Assembly (NCBI GenBank): GCA_973895155.1
Contig: OZ316896.1
Span: 11,980,830-12,044,829, forward strand
Direction of reading: 5' to 3'
From: Marsupella aquatica
Taxonomy: Eukaryota; Plantae; Marchantiophyta
Length of the DNA: 64,000 nucleotides
Below the pieces are notes generated by a model that was not told the DNA's origin, ran no database searches, and saw nothing but the letters and a program-made list of their open reading frames with translations. How positions within the stretch are numbered: position 1 is the first letter of the stretch; every line of letters begins with the position of its first letter. Below, in pieces: positions 5,896-53,604 of the stretch. Position numbers and translations under genes: made by a program.

Positions 5896-7332
5896 ATGAA
5901 TGAACGTAAATTCGAATGTGGACAGATAAGACCACCAGCGAGCTTTCACAGAAGCGAAAGAATGTCAATCCACTCAATATGCAGTTTATTTGTTCACAGA
6001 AAACTCGTTGATTCTTCATCGGACTGCCAGTTTCTTGGGATACGAAGCAGTAAATGCAGCAACTACGATGTAGTACCAATGCCGATTCGTGTATCTTGTA
6101 CGTACAAGACGTCACTGTGTCTCAGCACCAACAAGAACAGTAGCTCAGAAATCCTGGGAACACATTTTCCTCCACTTCATACTGCAACGACTAGTGTGAG
6201 GCAGTTTGCGAGAATAGAAGATGTGGGTCGAAGACTGTCACAGACCGGGACTCTAGCTCTCCACATACAACCTGTTCCACCAAATATCACCACGAGCATT
6301 CCTCGACATCTTCATCCTCTACAAGCTCTGCTAAAGGATCGGAGAAGAAGAAAGGTTGCTGTACTGCAGGCTCTGCATCAGCAACAAGGTGGGGGTGATG
6401 TGGGTGATTCAACAGAATGTAATGGACAGAAAGCGGGGGGGCTAGTGGGGCGTGTTGTGGCTTTCACCACCCATCTTCAATATGCCAGTCGCGTTGACAA
6501 ATTGCTCAAACAGGAGGGCGCGGAGCCTCTTTGGTGCCCAACCATTGCGACGGAGCAAACAGAGCAAACTCGCCAGGAATTGGAAGATTTTGTGCGGAGA
6601 GCAGTGTCGAAAGGCGAATTCCAAGTTCATGGAGTTGCATTCACCTCTCGTGCAGGGATCAGGGCAATTTCGGAGGTGCTTGACGGCAGACAGCTGCCTT
6701 GGGATGCTTATGATGCACAGGAGGAAGGAGGACTTGATTACTCTCCATTTCTCTTGGCGGCTTTGGGCAAAGACGCCGAGCTGTTGAAGGAGTTGAATGT
6801 CATAGCTGACAGCCCTCGAGTATCCATGGTTGTCCCAGCGGTATCAACTCCTCGAGCTCTGGTGGAGGCTCTTGGAACAGGGAATGGGAGGAAGATCCTC
6901 TGCCCTGTGCCTCTCGTTGAGGGTCTGAAAGAGCCTCCAGTTGTGCCACAGTTCCTTGAGGAATTGAGGCAACATGGTTGGGATCCTGTTCGTGTAAATA
7001 GCTACGTCACTCGTTGGTTAGGTTCGGACTGTGCTAAACCTTTGCTTGTCATGGACCAATCAGTCCAATTTGGGTCCATTGATGCCCTGGTTTTTACTAG
7101 CACTGCTGAGATTGATGGGCTGCTGAAGAGCTGTAGGTGTTTAGGACTTGACGGAGTCCAAGCTCTGCAGAGACGGTCCAGAAGCTTTCTGATTGCATGT
7201 CATGGGCCAGTAACTGCACTGGGAGCACAGCGCTTAGGCGTGGAAGTTGATGTTGTTGGGAAAGATTTTCAGAGCTTCGATGGAGTTATCAAAGCATTAG
7301 GAGCCGAATTCAGAGACGCTGCCCAAAATTAG
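5896..7332 (+). CDS. Uroporphyrinogen-III synthase (HemD/HEM4)-like protein, intronless ORF; start codon uncertain
   Basis: 478-aa ORF with HemD-like motifs GRVVAFTT..YA, PLWCPTI, VAFTSRAGI, DALVFTSTAE, ACHGPVTA..A..LGV.VDVV. The N-terminal extension may be a transit peptide or UTR. Confidence 0.8.
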   Translation: MNERKFECGQIRPPASFHRSERMSIHSICSLFVHRKLVDSSSDCQFLGIRSSKCSNYDVVPMPIRVSCTYKTSLCLSTNKNSSSEILGTHFPPLHTATTSVRQFARIEDVGRRLSQTGTLALHIQPVPPNITTSIPRHLHPLQALLKDRRRRKVAVLQALHQQQGGGDVGDSTECNGQKAGGLVGRVVAFTTHLQYASRVDKLLKQEGAEPLWCPTIATEQTEQTRQELEDFVRRAVSKGEFQVHGVAFTSRAGIRAISEVLDGRQLPWDAYDAQEEGGLDYSPFLLAALGKDAELLKELNVIADSPRVSMVVPAVSTPRALVEALGTGNGRKILCPVPLVEGLKEPPVVPQFLEELRQHGWDPVRVNSYVTRWLGSDCAKPLLVMDQSVQFGSIDALVFTSTAEIDGLLKSCRCLGLDGVQALQRRSRSFLIACHGPVTALGAQRLGVEVDVVGKDFQSFDGVIKALGAEFRDAAQN

Positions 7333-11605: not shown

Positions 11606-13046
11606 TTTGGGGGGGTCAAGGTATGGTCACACAATGCTATTGGGAGTAGAACATTTTCTCCCTCCTTTACCATTTCTTCACTCCTTTGCCACCATTGTAC
11701 AATTGGTCGGAGCGCCCGGAAAATTACTTGGGACGTCCTTCTCAAAAACGAAGTGTCCTTGCAAAGATAGCCGGTCAGTGTGAATTTTGGGCATAAAGTG
11801 AAGCGACACGTGTCACAGTCCATGGGGATGTTCAAAACAAACCCCTCAGTCCATCCGGGCTTAACTTTCCCAAATTGGTCTATCTGAGTACCAAGGTCAA
11901 CTGTTATGGTCCACAGAGCTTCAAGGTTTCAAGGCATTCTCATTGTATATTGTTGCGGGAAATTTAAAGGTGTGCAATTGCAGCTATAAGCTCATATGAA
12001 ATTCTTGTGCCAAATGGTTTTCTTGGATAGGGTTAGTAAGCATGATTGGATGGGATCTACAGAAACATGTATTTTGACTAAGATGGCATAGATCAGTTTA
12101 GAATAAAATTCTGTACTTTCATACAAAGAGGATTTCGGGATCCAATCCAAGCTCAATAGTTCCTACCAACATGAGTGCACACGAGACTAGCCAGAACAGC
12201 ATCTGGTGCAATAAACCAATGAGACTGGTGACAAAGCCTCACAATGAGCACAGTTCATATGATGATCCACATGGAATATGGGGGCTAAGTGTGAGATTTG
12301 AAAGAAACTGTAAGCATTGAGCAAAAGAGAAAAGCAGATTTTGGGCATGGGTCCAAAAGGGGAGACAAATTTAGTCAAAGGAGAATAAGGTAGAGAACAT
12401 GGGGTGGGGAGTGGAGAGAGGTGAATGATATTTTTACCATGTCAATGACAGTGGTCTGTTTTAGCACAGCATTCAATTTTTTTGGATATCAATGTTTGCC
12501 ATACTGGCGGAAAACCCAAATAACTTTAAAACTCACTGTAAATGTATGTTGGAGAGGGTGAGCTAATCTAAGTTGTGACCAACATAGAAAACATTTATAT
12601 TGTCCACAGCAATGTTTAAAAAGGTTTGGCAGACATCCTTAAAAAGACATCATGGATCAGTTTGTAATGAAATGTGAAAATTTTCATATAGTTTAGGGGA
12701 GCCAATGTGCAAATGAGTACTCCATCCTCAACCGCTTAGTAGTAGCAACCTACTAAGCTCTCCGTTGCTATGCTAGAGTGGGACATGTTGCTATGCTAGA
12801 GTGGGACATTGTCTATTAGATTTGCATTGTTAGAGGCATCATATATCTGCTAGATAAACTAGTGGTGCCTTACATACGATAATTGCAACAGCCTAATAAA
12901 TCCTAGCTTAAATTCAATGTGCCATGCTAGTGATGACTTGATTTAACATACCACATTTATTTAGCTCACTTTCCCATAAAAGTAAATAATTACTGAAAGT
13001 AGGTTAAGGAACTAGAATTGTTCTTTGATGTTGTTGTAAGTTGGCA

Positions 13047-13184
13047 TGTCGTGCGCATACACATCGCTACACAACATACATCGCTTGTCACACATATCCA
13101 AACATAGTCACAATCCACTAACACGCACATAAGAGAATGGAGTACAAATACAACCAATGTCCACACATGCCCAAAACCCACAAT
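13047..13184 (-). repeat. Terminal repeat Y, outer copy (~138 bp)
   Basis: Matches 13516-13653 with one visible mismatch (aaatacaacc/aaatagaacc). Confidence 0.92.
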
Positions 13185-13513
13185 AATCTTTTCTGGATGA
13201 AATCGAACAACAATCAGTGCTAATCCAACAACGATCCTGTTTGACTCGATCACACATATATGTCAAGCCCAACGCACCTTGTGCTTCAAGGAATCCACGT
13301 TACATGCACACAACCTGGTCAGCCACACCATAGCCACCAAGCTCATGCTCAAAGGCTCAACATTGAAAGATGAGGCCTTTGAGCCAACACAAGGGGATAA
13401 CTATCCCTCACACCAACTCAAACTAAACACAAAGTGCTCATATAGCACACATACAAAACCTCTATATCCTAGATAGTACGATATACTTTACTACCACTCT
13501 AAATGGTGTGACA
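13184..13513 (-). repeat. Terminal repeat X, 3' copy (~330 bp)
   Basis: Direct repeat of 22520-22849, about 6 mismatches by eye. Both copies yield the same 65-aa spurious ORF. Confidence 0.95.
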
Positions 13514-13515
13514 GC

Positions 13516-13653
13516 TGTCGTGCGCATACACATCGCTACACAACATACATCGCTTGTCACACATATCCAAACATAGTCACAATCCACTAACACGCACATA
13601 AGAGAATGGAGTACAAATAGAACCAATGTCCACACATGCCCAAAACCCACAAT
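13516..13653 (-). repeat. Terminal repeat Y, inner copy
   Basis: Direct repeat of 13047-13184. On the - strand it begins AT-TGTGGG immediately after the purine tract. Confidence 0.92.
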
Positions 13654-13663
13654 CGCCCCCCTA
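13654..13663 (-). other. Polypurine-tract-like sequence (TAGGGGGGCG)
   Basis: G-run directly upstream of the inner Y repeat in element orientation. Confidence 0.6.
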
Positions 13664-13826
13664 GCTGGGAGTGAGGTCCCCTAACTCTAGCTAGCCATGA
13701 GTTCTACAAAGTTAATATACACCTTTGTAGGTGCAAAGATCAAGAGACCGGGTGCAAGTGAGCCCCATCGATCGCCTACCTGCAATCTATATCTTCCACA
13801 AGAACACAAATGATAACTAGTTGGCA

Positions 13827-15254
13827 TCACCGACATTGAGGACAAAACCATGATCCGCTAGGAATCATGTGCAAGGGTGGTGTCAAACACGACATGTGCC
13901 ATCCTCTAGAACACCTATCACAAATCAACATAGTAGCTGCTTCCTGAGCAGACCCACACAACATACACTTCAAGCTAGCACGAACATGTGCCAAGCTTGG
14001 ATCCACAGTGCCATCAATGTTTGGAAGGTGACATGGCGCACAATTACGCACGTGATCCTTCCAAACCATACCATCGCGCCCTTCCAACATAAGGACTCCA
14101 GAAGGCAACACTTCACGCACACGCAAGATTGTCCGCCCTGCGGTCACATCAAGCGTTGTTGGTGCTGTCTGCTGCAAATAAACATAATCGCCAAGATGAA
14201 ATCTCCTAATCTTCGTGCGATAACCTCCTCCACGAATAGTAGCATATCGCAAAGTATCACGATGCTGGGCAATAGCAAGGTTGTCAAAGGCCATGGGCAT
14301 GACTCTCTCAAAAACTCGTGCCCTCTCTGAACAAACCTTTACCCAAATATCTGGATCATCCAAATCCACAACAGTTACAACATCACGACGAATAGCCGCT
14401 GGCAAATCTGGCTCTCTACCATAGAGCAAGAAATAGGGTGAGAAGGATGCAAGTGATGCTTGTCGACTGAAACGGTAGCCCATAGCTAACCAAGGTAGTT
14501 GGAGATCTCAGTCTCCCAAATGACCAACCTGTAAGCCATACTTGCACAATCCTCTCTTCACAGTTTGTACAACTCTCTCTGCCAATCCATCTGCCTCAGG
14601 ATGATTGCGAGAAGTAGTACGATGGTCAATCAGAGCTTGCTCACACAAACCCTTAAAATCTCCACGGAATTCCGTGCCCTGATCAGTCAACACCTCAGTT
14701 GGTGCTCCAAAGTGACTGAGTACTCGATCCAGAAATGTGGTAGCCACTCCTCCACTAGCTTTATCTGGCAATGCCACTAGTTCAATCCACTTGGAGAAGT
14801 GCTCCACCATAACCAAAACATAACTATTATATCGTTGGGTGAGAGGCAATGGACCAGCAAAGTCCAAACTCCATCTGTACCCCAAACCCATGATTGGCAA
14901 TGGATGCAACTGGGGAGTGGGAGCATTAAATGATGCCCTCACTCGATCACATACCACACACTTAGCTATCAGTTGCTGGACATGAGTGTGCATACCACGC
15001 CACCAATACTGTGTCTGCAACAAGCTATAAGTGTGCTTGACACCAAAGTGCCCTAACTCCTCGTGCGCATGTCGCACCAAATGTACTCGTTGTGATGGTT
15101 TTGGTACCACCAATACCTTACCATCACGTAGTACTCTCAAAAGATGGCTTCCTTCCCATCGAAACCTCTTGGCTCTCTGTAGAACCCTGTCACGTTCCTT
15201 GGCATCAATACTGCCAACAATAGAACCACTGCGCAGATATTCCAACACTTTCAC
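13827..15254 (-). pseudogene. Integrase (HHCC + DDE core) with C-terminal PHD finger; one in-frame stop at 14508-14510
   Basis: HEELGHFG..YWW..CVVC, WSLDF, LTDQGTEF, GLAERVVQT. The C-terminal CMLC..ICDRC..WHMSC..WFCPQC is a C4HC3 PHD. Confidence 0.92.
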
Positions 15255-15269
15255 ATCATTGTGAATATC

Positions 15270-16904
15270 TTATTGTCCAAAAGTTACCTCACCAACATCC
15301 ACATCTGAAGACTCATCATCTGCTTCATCCAATGAAGTAGAGTCCACAGAACCACTGCATGCTGGAACCCAACAAAGGAAGGCAGATGCATGCCATCCTG
15401 GCACCATCTCCTTATCTGACTCATCATGCCATCTGGCTCCAATCTCATCCTCCTGACTGGTACATGGATTGCGGCTCAACCCATCTGCATCCAAATTCAC
15501 CTTTCCAGGCCTATGCACCACCTGGAAATCATACTCCTGTAACAACAATGCCCATCGTGCAAGCTTCCTTGTAAGCTTGTCAGACTCCATTAACCACTTG
15601 AGAGGCTGATGATCAGTGATCAAAGTGAAAGGATTACCAAACAAGTAATAGCGGAAGTGTGCCACAGCCCACACTGCTGCCAAACACTCTCCCTCATAAG
15701 AGCTATACTTAGCCTCTGCTAAATTGTTTGATCTACTGGCATATGCCACAACAAACTCATGTCCTTCATCATCTTTCTGAGTCAGCACTGCTCCAAGTCC
15801 TACTCCACTCCAATCAATGTGTAGCTGAAATGGTCTCCCTGAAATGGGTCTTCTCAAAATAGGGGATGATGCCAATCTTTCTTTCAACTCCTGAAAGGCA
15901 TGCTCCTGATCATCACCCCAAATTCATTCCTGATCCAACTTAGTGAGTATGGTCAAAGGTTTAGCAAGCTGGCTAAATTCTTTAACATACCTCCTATAGT
16001 AGCTTGCCAATCCCAAGAATGCACGAACTCTGCTCACATCAGTAGGACGAGGAATCCGTGTAATGGCCTCCACTTTAGTCTGTTGTACACCCAATCCCCC
16101 TGGGTATATAGTGTGGCCCAAATACTCAATCTGTTCTTGGAAGAACTTACACTTGCCGGGATGGAGCTTCAATCCATGTTCCCTCAATCTCTCAAACACA
16201 ATCTGCAAGTGTCGTTGATGTTCTTCCACAGTAGAAGAATAAACCAAAATATCATCAATATAACATCTGACAAAATCCAAACCTGCAAGGATTCGATCCA
16301 TGACTCTCTGGAACTCAGTTGGTGCATTCTTCAACCCAAATGGTAAGAACAACCACTGATACAAACGATCCTTGCCATAAGAATCAATTCCCCAGAATGT
16401 TGTCTTGGACCTGTCAGAATGTCTGATTGGAAGCTGATGGTACCCTGCCCTCAGATCCAATGAACTAAAAACCTTTGCATGCCCCACTGCATCAAAGATC
16501 TCCTCAGGTGTGGGCATGGCATATCGATCAGATTTTGTCTGACGATTAATAGGTCGGTAATCACCACACATACGCCTATCCGTGTAATTACCATGCACAT
16601 CCTTCTTGGCTGGCATCACTGTGGCAGATGCATACTCCCCGTATGAGATCTCCACCAAACCAACCTCCAACAAATCCTGAGTTCTGCTCTGAATCAGAGC
16701 TCTTTCCATGTCACTATAACGATATGGTCTACGAAAGATTGGCGCATCACTAGCCAATTCAATCTGAATACCAGGGCCCTTCAATATCCCCAAATCCTTC
16801 ATGCTGAATGCAAAACAATTCCTGTAACTCTTCAAGAATCGATGCATGCGACGTCTCTCATCCCCAGTCAACTTAGGACCAATCTGTGGCTCCCAACTCT
16901 CCAC
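15270..16904 (-). pseudogene. Reverse transcriptase, connection and RNase H
   Basis: RMCGDYRPIN, SLDLRAGYHQ, LPFGLKNAP, YIDDILV, EYLGH, FLGLASYYRRY; RNase H HIDWS..GAVLTQ, YEGECLA, TDHQPL, ADGLSR. In-frame stop at 15924-15926. Confidence 0.95.
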
Positions 16905-17139
16905 CAGATCCCTAATATCTTTTTGTAGGGTAGAAGAGATAGCCGATGATTGCTATTTAGCAGTAGATTGAACAGTCCCTTCTTGCTCAACAATCTGTCC
17001 AGCCTTGGCCAATCCTGCCATAGGTCCATGGACTATCTGCTCGCCCCCAACTGTGGTCATCACTGTCTTAGTGGACCGCAAGCTCACTAATGGACGATCG
17101 GTAACACCAGCAGAGCGCATCCACAACTGTTCAGCTACT

Positions 17140-18090
17140 CCCAAGCTGATAATCCAAGTCAAGCAATTCAAATCCATGGCTTGACCAAGGACTTGGCGGC
17201 GAGAACTCTCTGACACTGAGGCAACTGCAGTAGTGCCTGTCAAAAATCCCATAGCACGCTCTCTTTCATCAACAATAGGCTCCACTAATTGCTGTAGCGT
17301 TGTATCCCATACAAGTCCAGGCCCACCTGCTCTAAATGCATATGATGCAGAATGGCTCACAAAGTGGGTAATGCACAACGCGGACGACCAACTACATTGA
17401 CCACTGCCAATGGAGATCTATCAGACTGGGTCACATGTTGTGCACAACGCCCTGGATCCAAAATATCATCCACCACCAAGGATGCTGAGCGAGGAATGCT
17501 ATCAAATGCTCGCTTCAACACTTCACAAGGTAACAAATTAGTCCACCACAAGCGTGGACGATGTGCACGAGAACCCACACGTGCAACATCCAATAATATA
17601 GCAGGTCCAATTCAAGATTTGACCTGATGAACACTAGCAACAAGTCGATGACGCTCATCACCCAATAGTGGCACATTCTCTAAAATGTAGGCAGGGGAAT
17701 GTATTTGGTGTAACTGGAGATGACGCAATACCCGTAACATCTCCCAAAACAATGCAGAGCGTGGATCATGAAGTCCATGTTCAACTCTAGCTCTTGATTG
17801 GCCTTGACATGGCCAACCAGCAATCACCAAATCAATGGGGCTAATGCGATCCAAATGATCCGCCCCCAGCAATGAAATATCAGCCGGCAATGCATGCTGA
17901 TAGCCACGAACAGCATCCACTGGCAACAACTGTGGATAATGGTCTACCAACATAGCCACATGGCGCAATGAGACTCTCCGTGTTGTCTCATCTGTCTCCA
18001 CATACAAGTATCGACGCACAAGAATTCCTGCCTGAAGAATAGCAGCCAATCCAGTGCTAATTCCACCAAATAGATCAAGCAAACAAATAC
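17140..18090 (-). pseudogene. C5 cytosine DNA methyltransferase domain (DNMT3-like) inside the retroelement polyprotein
   Basis: Motif I LLDLFGGIS, motif IV IDLVIAGWPCQ, motif VI YILENV, motif VIII AHRPRLWWTNL, ERERAMGF, motif X RRQVLGQAM. One stop (17612-17614) and one frameshift (~17365). Confidence 0.9.
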
Positions 18091-18502
18091 CCTCTGGTGG
18101 ATATTGCCACGCAATAGGGATGGTATCCAATGGTGAAAGAGTCACTGGCCCACTTGTAGGAGATTGCTCTGCTCCTGACTGTGGTGTAAAAGCATGACGC
18201 CATGCATCATGTACCAATTGTGCTGCCCTCTATGGCAAGGCTTGTGCAGTACCCCATACTGGTGGCATAACACTAGTTGGATTGGGATCATCCCAATCCA
18301 GGTTTCTCCTTTGCACCATCTGCTCCTCATGTGACTCCTCCACTGATGGAACATCTGCTGCATGTGCATTACCCTTCATCAAATCATCAGGATCAGTGAT
18401 CACACCACTGAAGGCTGCCAAAGACAATAGTGTGGGTTTAGGGCCTCCCACAGGTCCACTAAATCGCATTGGCAACCTGCTCAATCGAGCATCTCCTGAC
18501 TG

Positions 18503-20872
18503 TCAATCAGGTCTGTATGACACTGATTCATCCCAAAAATCAAGAATAAATCCCATGGGGTATAACACTGTATATCCCACCAACACATCATATGGCTCTG
18601 CCTTAGTCAAAATAGCTCGCGCCTGTATGTGGGAGCTATCCTTGGTATGACCCTCCTGAATCCTCAATTCAAGTGGTCGTCTGGTGATGTGCTGTGTGGG
18701 TGTAGGTCCCCCCAATGAAGTCTGAATAGGAAAGGGACACTCCTCCAGATCATCTGGACGCAATGCCAATCCTCGTACCGCAGACTTACCCAACATCAAG
18801 GGCTGAGCACCAGTATCCAGTAACACTCTCTCTGGCTGGTATATGGCTCCAGTAGGCCCAACTAATCGGAAGATACCACTCCGATTATCCAATGACACCA
18901 CGCTAGGTTTAAACCTAGTCCTCTCAAATGCAGGGCGTGCTGGCAAACCCATCAACTTTGCCGCTGCTGCATGCCATGTCTCGCTAGTAGCCGTAGGTGG
19001 CATGGTCTTCACAGCTTCAACACTGCAAGCTGCTTTTGCATGGGAAGCAACAACTGGAGTGTCCTCACAAAGTGTAGTTGCCAATCTGAACACTTCTGCA
19101 GGACCAACTCCCAAGTTCAGCATGTCTGTAGCTGAAAATAATGGGGTGCACACTATGGTAGTAGCCGCCCCCAGCAAGGTACCTGTCATCCCTGCTGCAT
19201 CACTACCTGATTCTGCCAACTTACCCATGCTAGGGTTTGTCCGAATCGGGTTCATAGAGGCAGTCTGAACTGTCTCTGACAATGTAAAAGACTGAGGAAG
19301 CTTTGTCTGACGACGTGCATCCCCCCTCTGTGGATCTAGGTCCACTACTGCTCCTCGGGGCTCAAGAGCTTTTGCTGCCCCATGCGTCAAAGCTGTTGAT
19401 GCATCAATGTGTCCAGTGCCACACATGAATCCCATAGTGGCAAGATCTCCATCAACCCCATAAGATGTGGAAGCTCCATAGGATGTAGAAGCCCCATCAC
19501 CAAAAGTAGGTCTCACCTGAGAACTAGCCATAGCAGCTAGTTGTTGCTCCAATTGAGCAATCTTAGTATCCTTAGGATCTATGGTCACAGCAGGAGCAGT
19601 ATCACCTCCTTGCCTCGCTACATGTGGCATACCTCGGCCACGACCACCACCTCTACCTCCTCTTCCCTGATCATGTGTGCGTTGTCCCCCTCTCCGTAAC
19701 TCAGGATGGAGTGAAAAATACCTATCCTTGGTGTGTCTAGGAGCTCCATAATGATCACATTGCCGCTGATCAGGTGCTGAGGCCCCTCCTGACCCTCTAT
19801 GATCAGGGCAATACCGTTGCGCATGATCCCACCACAGGTCCAACACCCTGACTGCTGTCCAGCATAGCAAGACACAAGTCTCTGACTGGTAGATTCCCGT
19901 GTAGTGGGCTTCTCCCTCTGACTCTTACGTGCAGTAGGCTGTGATCTGGGTGTAGATGCAGCCTTTGGTGCTTCCTTGGCAAACCCGGAAGTCACCACTT
20001 TCTCATTCACCATATTGAGCTCAATACGCTCTGAAAGTGTAAAAACAACTGCCAATGTGGGATCTGCATCCCTAAGTAGAGTGACATCTCTTACTCTGCG
20101 TCGCAATTCTCTATCTAGAATTGCATACCAAAATTGGACTGCTTGAGCCTCTATCACTCCCTTGGTGACAGTGATCAATCTGCGCATACGAGTGTATGCC
20201 TCACGTAGACTCTCTCCAGTCTTGCGCTGAAACTCCTGGAGACCCTTCAACTTATCAGTCCTCACACCCTGATAGTTTTGCTTTAATACTTCAAAGAACT
20301 CCACCACAGGGTTAAATGTTGGCGTAACTCCAACCCCTGTCACAATCGCACCGGTAGGAATAGCGGTGGATGTTGTTGGAGTGGTATTGGTAGATGGTGT
20401 GCCACTCTGGCTAGTGCTGCTAGAAGAAGCAACAGCTGTAGCAATGGGTTGGGCAATTAACCGCTCTAGTGCCATAGGTGATGGACACATAATTAGGCGA
20501 CCAATACTGCCTCCATGCCTCAATCTCAACCAAATGAGTCTTCCAAAACTCATGGTAGTCATCCATGGGTGGCCCCTCCAAATGCTGAAATAATCCCTTC
20601 CATGCCATGAAAGGGGTAAACAACGTGGCATTACGTAATGACTGCATATCGCACCACGTATCAAACTCCTGGATGAAGTCATCCAGATCAATCGTGCCAA
20701 CTGCACCAGAGTATCGTCGTGGGCCCTTTGTAGCCCCGTACATCTCCTCCATATCCCACAACAAAGGTGCAATCACCTGATGACAAGGAGAACTGCTCAC
20801 AGAGTCCTTGTCAAAATCACTATCTGAAGCTGCACTTGCAACTGCTATCAATGTTGTTGGCCGAAATGACAC
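18503..20872 (-). pseudogene. Gag (capsid-like region and CCHC knuckles) plus aspartic protease; two frameshifts
   Basis: FQRKTGESLREAYTRM, CWTCGG, degenerate QCDHY..RH..DRY knuckle; protease VLLDTGAQ...YDVLVG...LDFW. Confidence 0.85.
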
Positions 20873-21498
20873 CCCACTTCGAGTGAAATCGGTCTTCTAT
20901 CCCTCGGACAGTTTCGTAGCACCCAAAGAATCCGTGATGACAAATCTGCCCTAAATCATCACCATCACCTTCATAATAGGCTTCACAATGCCCCAAGGTT
21001 GTAGCTCAAAATCCATGCAAAATTATTCCAATCTATGCATCTAGATGGATTCAGAAGTATCAAAAACCTTTACGTAGCTTCTGATTTGGCCCAAAACAGG
21101 TCTCTAGACAAACTAATAAGTGTATAAAGCCCCCTAACCCTTTAACTTAGACAACAAGTTATGAAAGCTTGTGTGTACACTGCATGCCATAAGAACTCCA
21201 TGGTTAAGCACGCGTAAGAGGAATAGCTTTGGGATGGGTGACCTCCCCCCTTGGAGTTATGCACCAACTTAGGCACTCCAAACCAACCAATTGTCAACTA
21301 CTCCTCACGTACCAACAAGCTACCTTGCGGCCTGCTCCGGTCTGGCTCCTGTTCCGTCCTCACGCCCCTCGTCACGAGTCGCCTTGAAACGTCGAGATGA
21401 GCCTAAGGGAGCCCTTCACACCCGCCACACTTCGCTACGTCGGGGTGAACCTCCAATTCAAATCCATTCAATAGTCATCCGAACGCCCGGTCCACAAG

Positions 21499-21938
21499 TT
21501 GGAGTGGGATGATCCCAGTCCAAGTCCTTCACATCCTCTACACAGGTGAAGTCGCCAAGATACAGTTGGATTGGGTTGATCCTAATCCAAATCCACTTCA
21601 AGGTCCAGATGAGGTCTCTGGACACGCCAACATACAATTGGATTGGGACGATCCCAATCCAAATTCAACTTTGCCCAAAATCAAGTCTCCAACGTTGTCA
21701 ATGGATTGTTGGATTGGGATGATCCCAGTCCAACTTCAACTTCAAGTCCAAATGGGGTCCGAAGTTACCAATGTATAGTTGGATTGGGATGATCCTAGTC
21801 CAAATCCAACTTCGAGTCAAAATGCGGTCTCAAGAGACAACCCACAATTGGACTCGGATGATCCCAATCCAAATCCAACTGAGTCAAAATGAGGTCTCAA
21901 GAGACAACCCACAATTGGACTCGGATGATCCAGTCCAA
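21499..21938. repeat. Seven ~70-bp units with a conserved 25-bp palindromic core TTGGATTGGGAT-G-ATCCCAATCCAA
   Basis: Cores start at 21499, 21566, 21638, 21709, 21779, 21848 and 21915. Confidence 0.9.
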
Positions 21939-22519
21939 AACAAGGTGCGCCACAAAACACGCCGCAATTCTCGTACCAAAACATTGTTCAACAATATTGT
22001 CATTTTCCTTGTGCCCTAGGTCGCCGCCGCACCTCGTCGCAACGCGGACTCCATCGTGACGCCGACAACGCAATTCACCAACATTTGATTGTCACTTTCT
22101 TCGTAAAAGTATACTATCCATCAACGAATCTCAAATCCGCAATAGCCTTTGTGATGCTGCAACGCAATCGATAAGGACTAGAACTCCAAAAACACAATGT
22201 AGCAACTACCACTTGAGGCGCCTTCTGATCTTCGATCAGTCCCTCATTGCCATAGCTTCGAGAAGCTCCAAATGTCAATCCGGTAATCAACTCCAGAGAG
22301 AACTTCAATGAACAAACTATCAGAGAGCTTCAAACAGCACCACGCTGTACTCTCAGAGCAATCAATAGCTCACAATCTCCAATCTACCAACGGCTGATCT
22401 GACTTGAGCTACCACAAGTCAACCAGCAAGATCTCAACAATCCAAGCTACCATGGATCAACTCTGCAATACAGCAAGCTTTGAAACAGCTTCGAATCAAC
22501 CTGGAGTGATCTTTCAATG

Positions 22520-22849
22520 TAATCTTTTCTGGATAAAATCGAACAACGATCAGTGCTAATCCAACAACGATCCCGTCGGACTCGATCACACATATATGTC
22601 AAGCCCAACGCACCTTGTGCTTCAAAGAATCCACGTTACATGCACACAACCTGGTCAGCCACACCATAGCCACCAAGCTCATGCTCAAAGGCTCAACATT
22701 GAAAGATGAGGCCTTTGAGCCAACACAAGGGGATAACTATCCCTCACACCAACTCAAACTAAACACAAAGTGCTCATATAGCACACATACAAAACCTCTA
22801 TATCCTAGATAGTACGATATACTTTACTACCACTCTAAATGGTGTGACA
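22520..22849 (-). repeat. Terminal repeat X, 5' copy
   Basis: Direct repeat of 13184-13513. Including 22518-22519 it is bounded by TG...CA. Confidence 0.95.
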
Positions 22850-22866
22850 TGCAACATTGAGGGTAG

Positions 22867-27875: not shown

Positions 27876-28396
27876 TGTGCAAGACATAGGTCTCAAGTTC
27901 AGGCAAGGACGGGGTGTGTGGGTGGATCGATTCAATCTCGTTTGAGCCGAGTGGCTCTCAAATGGGCGGGTGGTGCGAAATGATTGGGTTACACATTGAG
28001 GGGATTTGGATCGTGTCATTGATTCGAATTTAACGGGTCACAGGGTTTCTCGGGAGGCGGGAGGGCGTCTTGAGGATGGATGAGAGTGAAGGGTGGAGGT
28101 CAATTTGATCTGCTGTGCTGCGAGCCGGTGCTGGATGGGGTGGAGTAGGATCTGGATGACCCTTCCCTGGATGGGATGTTGTGATGGATAAAAAGGAATG
28201 CGTTTTGGCTAAGGAGGAGGAGGTGATTGACTAGGATGCCTTTGTGATCGAGGAGTGAGGAAGAAGAAGAGGAGACGGTCTCGGGAACGGAGCGCTGAGC
28301 AAGGAGTCTAGGGTGTAGGCAGGACAATGGTTGATTGAGATGGCGAGCGAGTGCAGAGGTGCTTCATGAGGGGAGAAGGAGACTAATGTCAAGACA

Positions 28397-33984
<5,588 letters not shown>

Positions 33985-35511: not shown

Positions 35512-36804
35512 TCATGACGCCCTTCCTCGAAAGAAATTGTTAACGAAGTCCTGCAGCATTTGACGAGACCCTTCGACCGGATTCCCAGGAGGATTTCGAG
35601 GACCCACAAGGTCTCGAAATCGCAAGTTCTCCTGATTGTGCTTCAGATTGTAGACTACACCGCGCATGTGCCCCTTGCCCACCACTCCCACCACTCTCGA
35701 GCATCCATTCACAGCTTTGCTCCGCTTCAGAGACCACGCCAGATACATATCCCTCTCGTAGACCAGAGGCTGCAGCAACGACGGCAGTCTAGATCCCATC
35801 TCGGCAAACATTTGCGACAGGGCGTCATCGGACTGGAGCGTCTGCAGCATTTCTTCCGAGACATCGTTCAGACGGGGCGAATTCATGGCCTGCAGGAAAA
35901 TCGCAGCCAAGCGGAATCGCTCGTCCCATTTGAGAGCCTCCCAGGCCCTCTTGAGTGTCACCTCAATGGGCCGGTCTCCGAGAACGATTTGAGCCTTAAT
36001 CTCTTCGGCCGCTTTGCGCGCTGCGCGGAACTCCTCCCCTGTGGCAACTCCTGTGGACTTTGAAAGCCTTTCCGACATTCCTCCCAGCAGCAGTCTCAGT
36101 GCCAGCGCTGATCTGCCCCCCAGTCTGAGGCTCCGGCTCATGGCCGCTCCGAAATTGTCTCCACTCATAGACATGAGATTATTGTTCCTCCTCTTCTCCT
36201 GAGTTAGTCCATCTTGACTACCACTATCTTCTTCTGAAGGGAACATGATTCCAGCTCTGCTTCTGCACAATTCTACGACCACATTCTCGGGACGCACGGC
36301 TCGGATCACCCTCTCCACTTGAGAGGCGGATCGCAGCGACATGTGTGCAGTTCCTACCACGAACACCATTTCCGGCTCTCTGTATCCATCGCTTCTGCGT
36401 TCCACATAGTCCGCTGGTCGCAGCGCCACCACCAGAGTGCCATCCTCGACCAAATCCATCAATTCGGGATACGTCGATCGCATCACGCGCTGGGTCTCGT
36501 CCATGATTTCTGCCCTAAAATCGTAATCGCTGGGCGGGGACTGCACTTCCTTGACGGCCCCTGCCGCAGCAATCACCCGCCTCCTTGTGCGAATTCGACG
36601 CGGTTCAGATCGAGAATTCGTCTTCCATTTCAACGCGCAAAAACCCGATCTGGTGAACTTGCTGCTCAGCAGGAGGGTCGTCGAAGCAGCAGCAGCAGCA
36701 GCGGTGCTGATTTCGGAATTCACGGAATTCGGGGAATAAGAACATGATTCAGCACCCGGAATCCCAATGCAGCACCCAAGCTGCGACATTGTTGTCGTAG
36801 CCAT
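35512..36804 (-). CDS. TraB-domain protein, probably plastid-targeted, intronless
   Basis: VFVVGTAHMS, VVVELCRSR, GEEFRAA, LGDRPIEVTLKRAW, LVYERDMYLAWSLKRSKAV, VVGVVGKGHMRG; Ser/Ala/Arg-rich N-terminus. Confidence 0.9.
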   Translation of the reverse strand: MATTTMSQLGCCIGIPGAESCSYSPNSVNSEISTAAAAAASTTLLLSSKFTRSGFCALKWKTNSRSEPRRIRTRRRVIAAAGAVKEVQSPPSDYDFRAEIMDETQRVMRSTYPELMDLVEDGTLVVALRPADYVERRSDGYREPEMVFVVGTAHMSLRSASQVERVIRAVRPENVVVELCRSRAGIMFPSEEDSGSQDGLTQEKRRNNNLMSMSGDNFGAAMSRSLRLGGRSALALRLLLGGMSERLSKSTGVATGEEFRAARKAAEEIKAQIVLGDRPIEVTLKRAWEALKWDERFRLAAIFLQAMNSPRLNDVSEEMLQTLQSDDALSQMFAEMGSRLPSLLQPLVYERDMYLAWSLKRSKAVNGCSRVVGVVGKGHMRGVVYNLKHNQENLRFRDLVGPRNPPGNPVEGSRQMLQDFVNNFFRGRAS

Positions 36805-36982
36805 CGAAATCCAGAGCTTCGCAGCTCGAAATCCTCGCGCGCTGCTCCTCGATTCTCTTCAGCGTTTTGGGTTTCCCGCATCAGCTAAGCTTCGCAACAG
36901 CTGCTCGCGCGGTCTCTCTCTACACTACTGATTTCTTCTTGTTACTGAGAAATTTGCGAGATCAGCTGATGGAACATATCCG

Positions 36983-37330
36983 TGTGAAAGGAAGAGCACC
37001 TTTGAGAGTGCGGCTTGGAATGAATGGAACCATATCCGTGTGAAAGGAAGAGCACCTTTGAGAGTGCGGCTTGGAATGAATACTAGGGACACCAGAGATG
37101 GTGGAAAAGAATTATGGCCAGTAGGGTAACCCATGGCCCCAAGAGGGTTGTGAGATGTGAAAGGAAGAGCACCTTTGAGAGTGGGGCTTGGAATGAATAC
37201 TAGGGACACTAGAGATGGTGAAAAAGAATTATAGGGAGTAGAGTAGCCCATGGCCCCAAGAGACACCAGAGATGGTGGAAAATAATTCTAGGGAGTAGAG
37301 TAACCCATGGCCCCAAGAGACACTAGAAGA
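36983..37330. repeat. Tandem repeat array 1 (unit up to ~115 bp, gtgaaaggaagagcacctttgagagtg...)
   Basis: Three to four partial or complete units; same unit as 39055-40005. Confidence 0.85.
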
Positions 37331-37339
37331 AACCTGACG

Positions 37340-37476
37340 ATTCTGAGACCCTGCCTTAAGTGACTCCATTGAGACCTTCCAAAATTTGTGACTCCTAGGT
37401 TGTTGGGCCATTCTGAGACCTTGCCTTAAGTGACTCCATTGAGACCTTCCAAAATTTGTGACTCCTAAGTTGTTGG
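37340..37476. repeat. Tandem duplication of ~70 bp
   Basis: attctgagacc.tgccttaagtgactccattgagaccttccaaaatttgtgactccta.gttgttgg occurs twice. Confidence 0.85.
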
Positions 37477-39054
37477 TGTCATTTTAGTTACAAGTGTTGG
37501 ACTGAGTTTTGGAGAATTCTTGGGAAGTCATTTCTATAACTATTGTGGAAGTTACAACTATAACTAAGTTTAGCCAACAAGAATGAAGTTTGTTAAGTCA
37601 CTCACATACCATTTGGGATATATCATCATTTTCTTAGTTTACCTGGATATTCTACTCGTGAGGTATGCCTTTAAAAGAGTAAGATAAAGGGGAACATTGG
37701 GAAGAGACCGACAGGCCACATGGGGGAGCGGTAGTGAGAAAGGAGGGGTGGAGCTTGATGGTCACCAAATATTCAAACAGGGTCGCCTTGCTTGATTCGC
37801 AAACTTTCACTTAGGACGTAGATTAAAGCATTAGATTGCGAGCTTCAATCGCTATGGAAAAGTAGGTTTTTGCTGCGTGGCCGAGGAGGTTTAACCCAGG
37901 TAAATGGTAGACTCAACCTTGGGTTGTAACACTCCCCCTTGGTTGTACCGCGGATACATGTTATGGTGCAACCAACAAGTCTACCATATATGTGGAGTGT
38001 AATTGTTGTATCTTTAAGATATGGCCTAATGAAAAGGAGAAGAAATTGGGGGGGGGGGGGATGTAACCTCATTAAAACCTCCCCTACTTTCTTTTGGGAG
38101 TATAGAGTGTTACCATCCCTCCGATTCTATAGTATAATGTAATTGGTTTGTGAGGTAAAGTTTAGTAGACTATGTGGTCTTTAGGCTCTTTTGAGGTGAA
38201 GTGTAAACGTAAGTAGACTGTGTAAACTAAGGTAAGTGGTGTATGGGTCCGCAAAGCTATTCGGCCAAGTTGTTGTAAAGCTAGTCGTAGTGGATGGGTG
38301 ATGGGCGTAGTCGGAAAGAGTCGATCCCCCTGCTCATTGCCGTCCCTTGCTTTTGCTCGTGGTTGACTCGCTGTCTCCGGTGCTCCGTGTCTCTGTCTGT
38401 GGAGAAGAAAGGTCGGCAGTGAGGCTCGTCCTTCGTTTGTGAGGAAGAAGAGGGGAAATGTTAAGGGCTATGGATTGGGGCAGCGACGCGCGGGCTGCAT
38501 TATCGGAATTCTGCATTATCGGAATTCGAGTTGAGGAGTAGCGTTCTTGATGGTAAGATCTAGCCTATAGCCCTGTATATTCCTTTCTTGAATCGTCTGT
38601 GTTTGTGCATCTCCTTTATTGCCTTCGGTCTGTTTTAGTGAATGTAAATATGGTGTCTTAATTTTCTGTGCTGCGATCTATTCCAATGCGCTGCTGGGTC
38701 CGGTTTCCAACTAGCTTCGTGAGAAGCGCCATTGTAGTCCTTTGGATGCAGTCTACACAGTATGTCTTCATAGTTCTGCTGTCGTTCATCTTTCGCCCGA
38801 TTGAGTTGATTGTAAGATTGCTGTCGATTCGAATAAATGAAATACGGAAATTATTTATGCAATCTGCCTGGCGTACAGGCGAATTGTTAGACTTGTCGTC
38901 AGACTTGGCCTTGCAAGATTAGCTTTGTAGTCCGGTTGTGCTTGCTTCTAGTTATTCCTCTGTGCACTTGGTCTTCCATGCCAAGATTGAATCTATTTTC
39001 CGATGAGCTCTATAATCCCTTCAACAGTTGAGTGGTGTGAGGGCGTGCGAAGAG

Positions 39055-40005
39055 TTATGGGATGTGAAAGGAAGAGCACCTTTGAGAGTGGGGCTTGGAA
39101 TGAATTCTAGGGACACCCATGGCCCCACGAGGATTATAGGATGTGAAAGGAGGAGCACCTTTGAGAGTGGGACTTGGAATATATACTAGGGACACAGAGA
39201 TTGTGGAAAATAATTATAGGGAGTAAGGTAACCCATGGCCCCAAGAGAGTTATAGGATGTGAAAGGAAGAGCACCTTCGAGAGTGGGACTTGGAATGAAT
39301 TTTAGGGACACCTATGGCCCCAAGAGGGTTATAGGATGTGAAAGGAAGAGCACCTTCGAGAGTGGGACTTGGAATGAATTCTAGAGACACCAGAGATGGT
39401 GGAATATAATTCTAGGGAGTAGGGTAACCCATGGCCCCAAGAGGGTTATAGGATGTGAAGGAAGAGCACCTTCGAGAGTGGGACTTGGAATGAATTCTAA
39501 GGACACCAGAGATGGTACCAAAAATTCTAGGGAGTAGAGTAACCCATGGCCCCAAGAGGAGAGGGTTATAGGATGTGAAAGGAAGAGCGCCTTTGAGAGA
39601 GGGACTTGGAATGAATTCTAGGGACACCCATGGCCCCAAGAGGGTTAGAGGATGTGAAAAGAAGATCACCTTTGAGAGTGGGGCTTGGAATGAATACTAG
39701 GGACACCAGAGATGGTGGAAAATAATTCTAGGGAGTAAAGTAACCCATGGCCCCAAGAGGGTTATAGGATGTGAAAGGAAGAGTACCTTTGAGAGTGTGG
39801 CTTGGAATGAATACTAGGGATACCAGAGATGGTGGAAAATAATTATAGGGAGTAGGGTAAACCATGGCCCTAAGAGGGTAATGGGATGTGAAAGAAGAGC
39901 ACCTTTGAGAGTGGGGCTTGGAATGAATACTAGGGACACCACAGATGGTGGAATTAATTATAGGGAGTAGAGTAACCCATGGTCCCAAGAGGGTTATAGG
40001 ATGTA
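39055..40005. repeat. Tandem repeat array 2 (long ~115-bp and short ~80-bp variants)
   Basis: About 9 units of ggatgtgaaaggaagagcacc...ggaatgaat.ctagggacacc...ccatggccccaagagggttata. Confidence 0.92.
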
Positions 40006-44200: not shown

Positions 44201-47200
44201 GGGTTCTCCATTGAATAACCTAACTCAAAGCCTAAAACACCAAATTCTGAAAGAGAACTGCATCCATTCAACAACATGCAATAGACGGAACGACACAATT
44301 ACAAGCCTGAGATTGCAAGCGTAAAGAAACGGTCCTACTTTGTTTTGCACAATCTTATTGGATAGATACACATTTGATTATACACCTAATAGACTCCAGA
44401 CTTCGCACTAAGCTTCAAATTGATCTTTAATGCATTGGACGTGCAAGAAACTATACGGTACAGATTTTATGACTCATGCAATGCAACCAAGAAAAGGAAC
44501 ACAAGATCACAATGTGAATAAGGCCCATTGAATATTTCTCAAGATAAATTTCGCAAAAGTTATAGCGGGGATTCACAAAGACAAAGTGCTTCTGACCGAA
44601 GAATGCAATTTACTAGACATTCGGTTTTAACATGGAAGAAGCTCTTTGAAACCAGTATTGAAATGACCTCGGGATGTTTAAGCTAGTTGAGTTAAGCGGG
44701 AGTTAAGCCTCGAGGTAGTTTGTATCAGATTTTGAATCACCTGTTGCTTACAGTGAACATGTCCCCTTGTTGGTCTTTCACAACGTGATTCAATGGGCAA
44801 TACTTTTCCCCAGTCTTCTGATCATGCAAAACAGAGTGGCGATGACTGAACGTGCCCCTTTCGACATCCTGGCCACTCAAACGCACATGATTTCCTTCCA
44901 GCAATAGAGTGCCAAATGCCAGAGCTTCCGCAGTGGCCCAGTCTACACCGACTCCCGTTTCTATCATTGCAGCTCGTTGCTCATAAATTCTCTTGATAGC
45001 TTTGTGTGGTGTAAACGTTTCTGGTAGGGCAGTGATAGAGTTCCCCACCTCTTTGAGGATCTCAGGATTCACACTACGAACAAAAAAGTAGCGTACAGTG
45101 AAACATCAATGTTATGATGTGAGTTTAATTTCTGGAAGCCTCAGCATTGAAGACACACTAATTGACATGCCTTCAAGGTTGCCTACGATCCACTTTTCAT
45201 CTCATATTCCATTTAAATGCCGTTTAGAGGTTTCTTCTAGTATGCCATTTCTTTGGTTAGTCTTGAAATGGAATTCCATTCCCTCTATATTCCTTACATA
45301 GTGGAGTTTGATAAGATTCAAATGTTCATTATCGTAAACAGGGAGTGGCCATAGTTGGTTGAAATAGTACCCAGTATTTCTCACTCGGGACATTTGTTCC
45401 GGTCCTTTAAATCCACTCCAGAATGCGGCTAGCCAATCCCGTTTCTTGGGAACATAGTCCTTACTCTGGTTAAATTCATCATTCAGTATGCCCATAACCT
45501 TGTCTTGCATTTCTTTTATTTTGTTGGCGTTGATGTCTCCAGAATCACTTAACTTCTTCATATAGATGTCAAGTGCTGGTTTGTGACCTTTTATTACCTG
45601 CAAACATGTCAGGCTCGGAATTCACATCTCTCGATCCAGAAAAATGTTATGTTTCTCCTTTTATTTAATCCAGCTTATTAGTTGAAAAGCGATGTCACTC
45701 AAAAAACGGGTCTACATTGTAGATTTAAAAAACTATCAACTTACAAGAATCTATACCACAGAAGCACAGGTCAAATTAGAAACGGTACTACATTCTATCT
45801 GATTCATAAGAACATTTTTTTGGACAGGGGACCAGGATTGCAAGATTGGGCTTTCTTCGGGTCATGGAAAGATTCTCGGCAATATATTGATGCAATTTTT
45901 CTGGTACAACAACCCTGTGGAGAAAGCGCAAGATGTTGAAGTGGAAAAAGGACCTAGCTTTTGAGTCACTGAAACTTGCCTGGTACATCTTTGGTTGAGT
46001 GAAAGATGGTTCATCAATCTCATTATGGCCAAACCTTCGGTAACAAACAATATCAACCACAATATCAGCATGAAATTGACACCTCCACTCTATTGCAAGC
46101 TCACAAGCATGCACTACTGCCTCCACATCATCACCATTGACGTGGATGATTGGGGCACACAAAGCTTTGGCTACATCTGTGCAATAAGGGGAAGACCGAC
46201 TTGATTTAGGATCAGTGGTGAAAGCCACTTGGTTATTCACCACAATATGAATAGTCCCTCCAGTCGAGTAGTTGATGAGGTCACTCAAGTGAAGTGTCTC
46301 ATACACCACGCCCTGACCGGAAAAGCTTCCATCACCGTGCAAAATGATAGCCACATGCTTGAGCCTCTTTTTGTCTTGAGAATAATATTGTTTCGCCCTA
46401 GTTTTTCCAATCACAACTGGTGCCACTGCCTCAAGATGGCTCGGATTGGCCACGAGAGAGAGATGAATAGTTTTACCACTTATTGTTGAACGATCGTATG
46501 AAGTCCCTAAATGGTACTTTACATCTCCACTTCCTGTGTATCCCCCTGCCTCAACTTCAGCTGGCTTGATACCTCCGCTAAACTCATTGAAAATCTGCCT
46601 CAAAGGCTTACGCACAACATTTCCAAGCACATTCAGCCTTCCCCTGTGAGGCATTCCGATGACCACACTCTCCACTCCTAAATTTGCTGCATGGTCAACC
46701 AGCTCCTTCATACCTGCGGTTCGTCTTTCGTTAATATGTCTTCCGTCTTGTTGCAAATCAACTTACACTGAATGCATTGTTTTTGACAAAATAACATGTC
46801 AGCTAAAATTACGTAGTGACCATGACTGACGTCTTCGCTTCCCCTTAATTGTCCAAAGTTCAGTACGGTATCTATTACGTCATTCTCTGGATCATGTTTC
46901 TGATTTTGATAGGGCTTTGCAAAACAAGAGATAATCAGCTATTGGGAGAGAATTTCATGTCTAGAAATAGGGACGTCGTTGGAATAAGATCATTGTCTTA
47001 GGAAACGATAGGGAATCATATCAAAGGAAGCAAAAGATAGAAGATTGATTTGTCAACAAGAATTCAAGATAGATGCTAGATGCTAGATGCTAGATGCAAA
47101 CAATTGATGATGCTACATGGGACGAGAAGGACTAAAAGAAGCCATGTGGACATTCACTGTTTGGTACTATATCTCGCGGATTAGATCTTCAAGGTACCAT

Positions 47201-48209
47201 ATCTACCTGGAATGAGAGTTTCACAACCCTCCAAGCCAAATCTCTTGGCCGCTGTCCATTTTTGCGCTAGAAAGTTTTCAAAGTTGGTGCTCCACATGAG
47301 ACGATCCAAAATTTTGGCCTTGCGATCAGCTGAGTACTTCTTTGGAGCGAGTGTCTCGATTCGTTCACGCAGCCAATTGCACTTCTCTCGGTCTGCTATA
47401 TGCATATATTCATAACCCGTCGTCCCACAATAAGCTTGCTCTAGCCTCTCTAGAATGACTCTCAAAGTTTGCACAGGCCTATTCTCTGCAAGGAACCCAG
47501 ACATCTGCCAAACCCCTAAGAAAATTTGCTTATCCAAGTCTTGCTCTGTGAAGTTATAGGCGGAGAGCTCAAGCTCTGGAGGTTGTTTCCTGTTGTCCAA
47601 TCCAAGAGGATCCAAGTTTGCTTTCATATGTCCATTCACTTGGTATGCCCGAACCAGTGACAATAACCGAATGGACTCTTGGATTGAGTGCTCTCTGGTT
47701 GAGAATACAGGCAATGATGTGCTCTCCAAAGATTGACCAGTGAAATTCTTAAAGAAGATTTTCCAAGACTCATCCACGCTGTTGGGATCTTGCTCCCACA
47801 TTCTTTGAAGTTCCTCCAAATACACGCTACTTGTTCCATCCAAGAAATTGTCCTTCAAATGAGACAATGGCTTGGCCTTAGGTTGAGGTGGAGACTGCAG
47901 CTTCTCCTTGACACTAGCCAATTTCCTTGCCCCGATGAGAACAAATGGCCAGTTGGGTGACAACAATTGCTTCTCATAGCGCAGCACAATTTGACGGTAC
48001 GTGGATACTGGTGAAACCCAAAAAGGCTGATGAGAAGAAGAGCCAGCCTTCCTCGAAACCTGTGATGGTGCCACCCTTGACAAATTGCAAAAGCACTTTG
48101 AGCACAGCATGTCATTGGCAATGCGTGATGTCATCCGAAACGAGAGATGAAACTTGGTCAGAATCATTTCTTGGTAAACCCCTGGTCCCTTCCTAGACAA
48201 CCCTTTCAA
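41211..48209 (-). CDS. OGDH: 2-oxoglutarate dehydrogenase E1 component; exons ~48209-47207, 46713-45980, 45597-45371, 45073-44741, 44257-44011, 43773-43645, 43449-43234, 42357-42228, 41440-41211; start uncertain
   Basis: [108 protein letters not shown]. Splice phases are consistent. Confidence 0.95.
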
Positions 48210-52731: not shown

Positions 52732-53604
52732 TCAACTACGTTCTCTCCTAGATCTATGCTTGCTGCCGTTTCTTCCACTTCCTCGTCTTGGAGGACTCTC
52801 TCTTCTACTGTGCGACGGCTTCCGGCGTTTGCTCCTCTTGCGGTCGCCACTAGACTCTGAGTCGGACTCAGTTTCAGAATCGGACCCGGTGTCAGACTCA
52901 GTTGCAGATTCTGACCTGGTCTCCGAGTCCGATTCGGTTTCAGAACCCGATGAAGCAGACGACGACGCCGAGGAGGCACTAGAACGAGAACCTTTAGAGC
53001 TACTACTACTCGCCTCGCTTGCTGTGGAGGAGGACAGATCACTCTCTTCGCTTCCTCCGCTATCAACGTCACTGCTCTCACTCGAAGACCGCCTTCTTTT
53101 GCGATTCTTTGACACTGATTTCCTCGACGGTTCCTCCTTGGGGACCTCCTGATCGTTGGCAACTTGATTTGCTGGTGAAGTTTCTTCTAGCGAATCCATA
53201 AGCTTGGGTCTTAATTTTGGATTCAACAGCTGCTGAGTACGAGACGGGCGAGATATGTAGACTCTGTCGTTTTTGCACTCGAAGGTCCAGTGCCCTAACT
53301 GGAAGCACTTTTGACACTGCTTCGAGAGGTCTGCCCCACCTGGCGATCGCGGGTCCTTCCTAACTCCCAATTGCACCGCTTTTTCTGTGCTCATAAGGTA
53401 CATCTGACGCTTCGCCTCCTTCCTCTCCTGCCATCTGCTCGGGCCCTCTTCTTTCTGCCCATACGCATTCACATTCCTCGCCGCCGCAGCGGCTGCCCGC
53501 TCCGCTTGCGCTCTACTTAAACCTTTCGCTGCATTCAGCGCAGCTGCCTTGATTCGGTCAGCTGCAGCCGCCGCAGCATCTGCATTCTCCTTCTTCGTCG
53601 ACAT
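52732..53604 (-). CDS. CCHC zinc-knuckle protein (ZCCHC10-like) with Ser/Arg-rich tail, intronless
   Basis: [48 protein letters not shown], then low-complexity S/E/R. Confidence 0.9.

Follow-up and report, generated by a model that had tools for sequence, protein, structure and literature searches.

Retrotransposons that carry a DNA methyltransferase (DNMT) are known from algae, where the role of the enzyme has been open since 2018, partly since the hosts are hard to work with. The closest known element to the one described here is KnitGypsy-Dnmt3 of Klebsormidium nitens, which, in the excerpted text of de Mendoza et al. (2018; PMC5890265), combines Gypsy domains and DIRS-like repeats with a DNMT in the Pol open reading frame (ORF). 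Later papers, among them a preprint (bioRxiv 10.64898/2026.05.21.726589), speak in their available passages only of 'streptophyte' Gypsy-DNMT3 and cite the 2018 paper. Here we analyze a 64,000-nucleotide stretch of the genome of the liverwort Marsupella aquatica (assembly GCA_973895155.1, contig OZ316896.1, forward-strand positions 11,980,830 to 12,044,829; hereafter the window), the minus strand of which holds a decayed Gypsy-type element, from 22849 to 13047, encoding in this order Gag, protease (PR), a DNMT3-like methyltransferase (MTase), reverse transcriptase (RT), RNase H (RH), integrase (IN) and a PHD finger. On the reading that we favor, with somewhat better than even confidence, the first frame, Gag-PR-DNMT, ends in a leaky stop common to the family, the DNMT would be made at Gag-like levels, and it would likely methylate the element's own new complementary DNA (cDNA).

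As far as published description goes, the two elements are related in kind through shared domains and repeat layout, in keeping with a preliminary description of the locus that had likened it to the DNMT retrotransposons of Klebsormidium. Both are characterized by a Gypsy-type Pol, an intronless and unrearranged DNMT3-like domain that retains its catalytic residues and shows signs of purifying selection, and DIRS-like repeats in the order A-coding-B-A-B. They differ in that the DNMT of KnitGypsy-Dnmt3 shares one ORF with RT and RNase H, whereas a conserved stop intervenes here, and in that the algal DNMT was framed in the excerpted text as acquired 'in the K. nitens lineage', whereas the present family has named members in liverworts and mosses; the comparison is one of descriptions, not of K. 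nitens sequence, and no protein named Klebsormidium was among the homologues returned by homology searches and cluster look-ups. Already known, from one alga, are the DNMT cargo and the repeat layout, the function of the enzyme in the present family being one that we infer. Not found in print are the land-plant range, the placement of the DNMT on the Gag side of a readthrough-type stop, and a 4-bp target-site duplication (TSD) together with a palindromic junction; neither land-plant copies nor the leaky stop turned up in the literature searched, the coverage of which stopped short of bioRxiv supplements and most subscription journals.

The 329 proteins gathered for comparison (P-numbers) include 103 with the MTase after RNase H, 60 with (Gag-)PR-MTase and no RT, and 11 with MTase and RT fused in one ORF. 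A large clade of Gypsy-PHD polyproteins, about 100 in number and including P0080 of Monoraphidium neglectum and P0102 of Cymbomonas tetramitiformis, carries the DNMT3-like domain after RNase H and ahead of integrase. Such elements share with the window element a homologous MTase (~33-45% identity) and the RT-RH-IN-PHD core, but hold the MTase within Pol, whereas that of the window precedes RT. The DNMTs of chlorophyte 'EpiLTR' elements differ in another way, being described in the available part of the preprint (bioRxiv 10.64898/2026.05.21.726589) as a DNMT4-sister domain appended at the 3' end of pol.

The coding part of the window element consists of minus-strand ORF pieces that span 20896 to 13827 as a Gypsy-type series (Table 1), interrupted by three frameshifts and seven internal in-frame stops. 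Six of these stops are decay, and the seventh, at 16955-16953, is common to the whole family. The preliminary description had recognized a Gypsy-like element with a DNMT3-like MTase between protease and RT and had counted two frameshifts in Gag and one in the MTase; every part that it named lies there on the minus strand, and its frameshifts agree with the ORF frames and with indel differences that sister contigs carry near 20457, 19827 and 17360. Its limits of 13827..20872 place the parts correctly and miss the split-repeat ends, through which the element reaches 22849 and 13047. Pfam searches, in which frames were translated with X at stops, returned RVT_1 (E 4e-34), RT_RNaseH (E 2e-35), Integrase_H2C2 (E 5e-15), rve (E 1e-13) and PHD (E 1e-10); gag and protease gave no Pfam match in the window and are assigned from an LLDTG motif, homology to Marchantia models and weak zf-CCHC and gag-asp_proteas matches (E ~0.002) in the distant homologue P0064. 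The element has the Gypsy domain set RT-RH-IN and the PR-RT-RH-IN order of canonical Ty3/Gypsy elements (Metaviridae), and Ty3 RT is the top solved-structure match of its RT (E 3e-50). The PHD finger matched best those of CHD4, ATXR5, KDM5B-PHD1, PHF21A, UHRF1 and AIRE, which we take to be readers of unmodified histone H3 lysine 4 (H3K4). DNMT3's own ADD domain likewise reads unmodified H3K4.

Table 1. Features of the methyltransferase-bearing element (window coordinates; a dot marks features given no strand)
Feature	Position	Strand	Remarks
Target-site duplication, 5' copy, TGCA (element strand)	22850..22853	.	3/4 letters match 3' copy
Terminal repeat A1, 330 bp, begins TGTCA	22520..22849	-	6 differences from A2; homologous to A repeat of L050
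Tandem units of ~70 bp in 1.8-kb leader, each with GGATTGGGAT-N-ATCCCAATCC palindrome	21498..21939	-	
gag	19500..20752	-	ATG start at 20752 by homology; matches N-terminus of Marchantia P0005; two frameshifts; 3' limit approximate; no Pfam match
Aspartic protease	18506..18871	-	DTG ~18817-18809; motif and homology
DNMT3-like C5 cytosine methyltransferase	17130..18100	-	Unpermuted motif order; one stop and one frameshift in window copy
MTase motifs	I ~18082; catalytic Cys 17809; ENV 17680; AHRPR 17566; ERERAMGF 17267; X ~17189	-	
In-frame stop TAG CAA TCA, tobacco mosaic virus-type context, family-wide	16947..16955	-	Sister copies, loci, published motif
Reverse transcriptase (YIDD)	16107..16900	-	Pfam; best solved match Ty3 RT
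RNase H	15531..15920	-	Pfam
Integrase, H2C2 zinc finger and DDE core (rve)	14598..15098	-	Pfam
PHD finger, C-terminal, and terminal stop	13827..13967	-	Pfam, profile matches
Short G-rich tract adjoining B1, possible plus-strand primer	13654..13666	-	Judged from sequence only
Repeat B1, 138 bp, ends CGACA	13516..13653	-	1 difference from B2
Palindromic B1-A2 junction GACA-GC-TGTC	13510..13519	.	Same junction in L007, L012, L050
Repeat A2	13184..13513	-	
Terminal repeat B2, element end ...CGACA	13047..13184	-	
Target-site duplication, 3' copy, TGCC (element strand)	13043..13046	.	

The MTase domain matches DNA_methylase (PF00145) at E 2e-10, with 41 bits against a cut-off of 22, and keeps motifs I, IV (PCQ), VI (ENV), VIII, IX and X in unpermuted order, its translation reading LDLFGG, GWPCQ, ILENV, AHRPRLWWTNL, ERERAMGF and LGQAMDL. 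The PCQ, ENV, AHRxRxxWxNL and E.ER..GF motifs of the preliminary description, which had also proposed the PF00145 comparison, can all be read there, with conserved catalytic residues. In a profile search of the PDB with a homologue profile, DNMT3A, DNMT3B and DNMT3C made up the first 29 of 32 matches (best E 1e-15), the lower ones including the rearranged-type MTase 4onj (3e-6) and M.HaeIII, and an AlphaFold2 model of the intact homologue P0002 (predicted local distance difference test score 86.8, predicted template modeling score 0.87) fits DNMT3A at E 2e-19. A near-full domain is present in 202 of the gathered proteins; 197 of these retain the catalytic Cys and 200 the ENV Glu, and the RxR residues are also nearly invariant. 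Nonsynonymous divergence (dN) between the window and four metagenome loci is ~0.29-0.30 and synonymous divergence (dS) 1.7-2.9, giving dN/dS of ~0.10-0.17, figures that are rough because dS is near saturation; these patterns indicate that the domain is under purifying selection.

The MTase shares a frame with RT and RNase H but not an open ORF, owing to the conserved stop between them. In four public runs no variant of at least 3% was seen at 16947-16962, flanking sites do vary, and much or nearly all of the sister depth lacks the break at 17614 and the three frameshifts. The closest homologue, P0001 (82%), terminates at the same residue as the window's stop, and many homologues end just past the MTase. 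We collected 80 metagenome loci (L-numbers) for comparison, of which 49 reach the RT start and 44 remain once five exact duplicates are dropped (L076-79 look like one insertion). Of the 44, 43 carry the junction stop, followed by CAA or its C-to-T decayed form and in frame with the start of RT. This count does not amount to 43 independent events because the loci come from nine assemblies and largely one family; about five divergent families carry the argument, and the Marchantia and Calypogeia junctions are known from protein ends only. At no other of 1271 codon positions do stops exceed 35%, and four other breaks of the window copy are stops in only 6/74, 1/34, 0/29 and 3/23 loci. Among PR-MTase proteins, 47 of 54 are without RT, RH or IN, the seven exceptions being one distant fusion and six NCBI gene models from Marchantia or Sphagnum, whose gapped sequences suggest predicted introns.

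The nucleotides around this stop resemble the UAG-CAR-YYA signal of the tobacco mosaic virus (TMV) replicase gene, a stop with six nucleotides of context in which, according to the available text of the source, UAG readthrough requires CAR YYA and UAA is likewise functional (PMC2754532). Exact CAR-YYA contexts are found in the window (TAG CAA TCA), L017 (TAG CAA CCA), L019 (TAA CAA CCA), L074 (TAA CAA TTA) and L076-79 (TAG CAA TTA), against a background of 14 out of 5899 stop triplets in the window. Readthrough suggested by this context would therefore make Gag-PR-DNMT the likely abundant product and RT-RH-IN-PHD its extension. Readthrough occurs in plant LTR (long terminal repeat) elements such as SIRE1 and RIRE2; in the window element the stop follows the MTase and precedes RT instead of dividing gag from protease.

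The element has the TG...CA ends and the 4-6 bp TSD of canonical Ty3/Gypsy elements but not their two matching LTRs, its ends consisting instead of split direct repeats in the order A-internal-B-A-B, that is, A1 (330 bp), the internal region, B1 (138 bp), GC, A2 and B2. The A and B repeats of L007, L012 and L050 align with those of the window. Exact 4-bp TSDs flank six of the seven relatives with both ends readable, those of L019 and of the window matching in three of four letters; the 5' end of L043 is unreadable. No TGG-type tRNA primer site was found after A1, and no tRNA genes in the window. Split repeats of the A-coding-B-A-B type are shared with SymbioDIRS-Dnmt3 and with PAT/Ngaro-type elements; SymbioDIRS-Dnmt3 carries a DNMT3 and was reported, in the excerpted text, to methylate CG in yeast (PMC5890265). 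Identity with DIRS, PAT or Ngaro elements was rejected on account of the DDE integrase (rve, H2C2), the protease, the 4-bp TSDs and the lack of a tyrosine recombinase. Troyka LTR retrotransposons, which have a Gypsy-like domain order, were likewise rejected, being described in the available part of the source as animal-only, with CG..CG ends, a 3-bp TSD and no MTase (PMC12440569).

Copies of the form A-internal-B outnumber the full A-internal-B-A-B form, as five of the seven both-ended loci stop after the first B (L019, L026, L032, L062 and L066, with a 4-bp TSD that is exact in four and matches in three of four letters in L019); B-B recombination and cutting at the internal junction both fit. 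Of the six differences between A1 and A2, five are concentrated in the final 65 nt (Fisher p 0.001, for a boundary set once the data had been seen), and two differences in ~400 nt remain. The window copy may thus be a young insertion that was copied in trans from a template with prior damage, or else gene conversion may be responsible; four older A1/A2 pairs that we compared show no such clustering. The palindrome of the leader units, GGATTGGGAT-N-ATCCCAATCC, occurs six times at 21501-21870 and once more, in perfect form, at 18279-18299, in a part of the PR-MTase linker whose protein sequence differs from that of P0001. Its chance expectation is 0.00 and it is present in none of the 80 related loci; it is possibly a protein-binding or dimerization site.

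In the mechanism that we propose from these features, termination at UAG/UAA-CAR-YYA would, with good confidence, be leaky, and the protease would release the DNMT within the particle, where it would be abundant relative to RT and integrase. The enzyme would probably be catalytically active on DNA, and we see about even chances that the element's own cDNA would be its main substrate, in which case new copies would arrive pre-methylated. Given that no tRNA primer site was found, the ends would be restored from the split repeats in a DIRS/PAT-like manner. Cleavage of the GACA-GC-TGTC junction after CA on each strand would fall to the DDE integrase, which would insert the element with duplication of 4 bp at the target and which the PHD finger would steer to nucleosomes with unmethylated H3K4. 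The combination of split-repeat ends, a DDE integrase and a palindromic junction suggests a mode of replication that would escape standard LTR-finders. A wider picture, which we offer tentatively and place below even odds, is that of an old green-lineage Gypsy-PHD clade extending from chlorophytes to liverworts and mosses and carrying an active DNMT3. In land plants this enzyme would lie with Gag ahead of a programmed leaky stop, so that each particle would be loaded with it and would pre-methylate its cDNA, and transposition would need no tRNA primer, passing through an intermediate with split repeats and a palindromic junction for the DDE integrase to cut. If this is true, such elements would have supplied early land plants with a de novo methylation activity borne by transposons.

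Besides the near-saturation of dS and the shared descent of most loci, several observations speak against a leaky stop that supplies a cDNA methyltransferase. In the commonest metagenome family (33 of the 44 loci) the stop is followed by CAA CCC, which misses the CAR-YYA consensus at its +6 letter, and then by an in-frame ATG three codons past the stop, an arrangement that also fits reinitiation. The junction site of L080 is ambiguous in frame, and the decayed window stop at 18505, where homologues have Trp, fits CAR-YYA by chance. Folding did not reveal a consistent stimulatory hairpin 3' of the stop (z -0.2 in the window and -1.2 to -3.0 in four relatives; the L050 slice did not begin at the stop). 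The dN of the MTase is about double that of RT, which is 0.14-0.19 against the same four loci. Finally, the KnitGypsy-Dnmt3 enzyme produced no methylation in yeast, a test from which its authors, in the excerpted text, draw no firm conclusion because human DNMT3B failed there too (PMC5890265). That result would also suit a domain kept for nucleic-acid binding or structure after loss of DNA methylation, which we nonetheless hold to be decidedly improbable in view of the near-invariant catalytic Cys, ENV and RxR and the intact DNMT3 fold of the AlphaFold2 model.

Production of RT-RH-IN-PHD by reinitiation, an internal start or splicing behind a real stop, rather than by readthrough, appears quite unlikely. 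The ATG of the main metagenome family would allow it, and NCBI gene models P0019, P0020 and P0028 span the stop by predicted introns; the window, L017, L074 and L076-79, however, have no ATG there and yet carry exact CAR-YYA, and the linker stays in frame across families despite its differing length, which readthrough requires and an intron would not. A single continuous polyprotein, the ancestor envisaged by the preliminary description (Gag-PR-MTase-RT-RH-INT-PHD) with all stops arising by decay, could account for the common frame of all pieces and for the MTase-RT fusions of distant relatives, an arrangement also described for Klebsormidium in the excerpted text (PMC5890265). It is very hard to reconcile with a junction stop that is invariant in sister copies and nearly so among the loci, in contrast to the other breaks, and we give it next to no weight; a conserved stop with a readthrough-type context separates MTase from RT. 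That the DNMT works in the nucleus instead of on particle cDNA, modifying integrated copies or host chromatin for self-silencing or copy-number control, is unlikely in our view. Placement in the abundant product would yield far more enzyme than one cDNA needs, slowing of transposition is among the possible roles listed in the available text of de Mendoza et al. (PMC5890265), and sister contigs differ from the window mostly by transitions (in run X1, A>G and T>C make up 229 of 434 sites), a pattern that fits genomic copies being heavily methylated. Host enzymes account equally well for the latter, however, and the fusion to Gag and protease would favor packaging, as the leaky-stop reading supposes.

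Homologues of the MTase piece at 60-82% identity are named in Marchantia polymorpha, Sphagnum and Calypogeia, and thousands of contigs 88-100% identical to the window, from the four public runs, cover the coding region and the 3' repeats; abundance was judged from contig depth in these runs, which is not a copy count. The window element is a decayed member of a high-copy streptophyte Gypsy-type family. A one-off nested insertion of the MTase, with sister copies lacking the domain, had been contemplated in the preliminary description and is excluded because MTase-bearing homologues form a family. In a quick IQ-TREE analysis of the MTase, the PR-MTase sequences fell into one set of 32 rows (Shimodaira-Hasegawa-like approximate likelihood ratio test 98), and in a FastTree analysis of RT, in which locus rows comprised RT only and L077 formed a long branch, the window, seven loci and Marchantia P0020 made up one set with a support of 99; both trees are unrooted and contain no host DNMT3 or DRM rows, and we claim from them neither direction nor donor. 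A scan of IMG/VR with P0047 returned no match. The occurrence of the family in Marchantia, a genetic model in which Mp_4g09160 (P0005) is annotated as an uninterrupted Gag-PR-DNMT gene model, makes the question of the enzyme's role directly testable, and the Gag-like enzyme abundance predicted from the conserved leaky stop constrains models of that role. One Sphagnum and one Marchantia record among the MTase homologues are named as DNA methyltransferases, and element copies may be mistaken for host DNA methyltransferase genes in bryophyte annotations.

Elsewhere in the window, pieces of Katanin p60 occur twice in inverted orientation (28370-33558, plus strand, and ~50620-52234, minus strand; 73-90% alike), possibly a gene and its partial duplicate. 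Long uninterrupted host ORFs at 5896-7332 (plus), 35512-36804 (minus) and 52732-53604 (minus) encode a uroporphyrinogen-III synthase (HEM4), a TraB-family protein and a zinc-knuckle protein, and exons of 2-oxoglutarate dehydrogenase E1 lie at 45788-48242 (minus). Fragments of a NIF-phosphatase-like protein and of an Ulp1 (C48) protease next to a low-complexity ORF at 56446-61557 (minus) may represent a decayed DNA transposon. Two minisatellite arrays are located at 36971-39993 (units of ~79/117 bp, split by a 1.9-kb spacer) and 54569-55685 (units of 42/85 bp).

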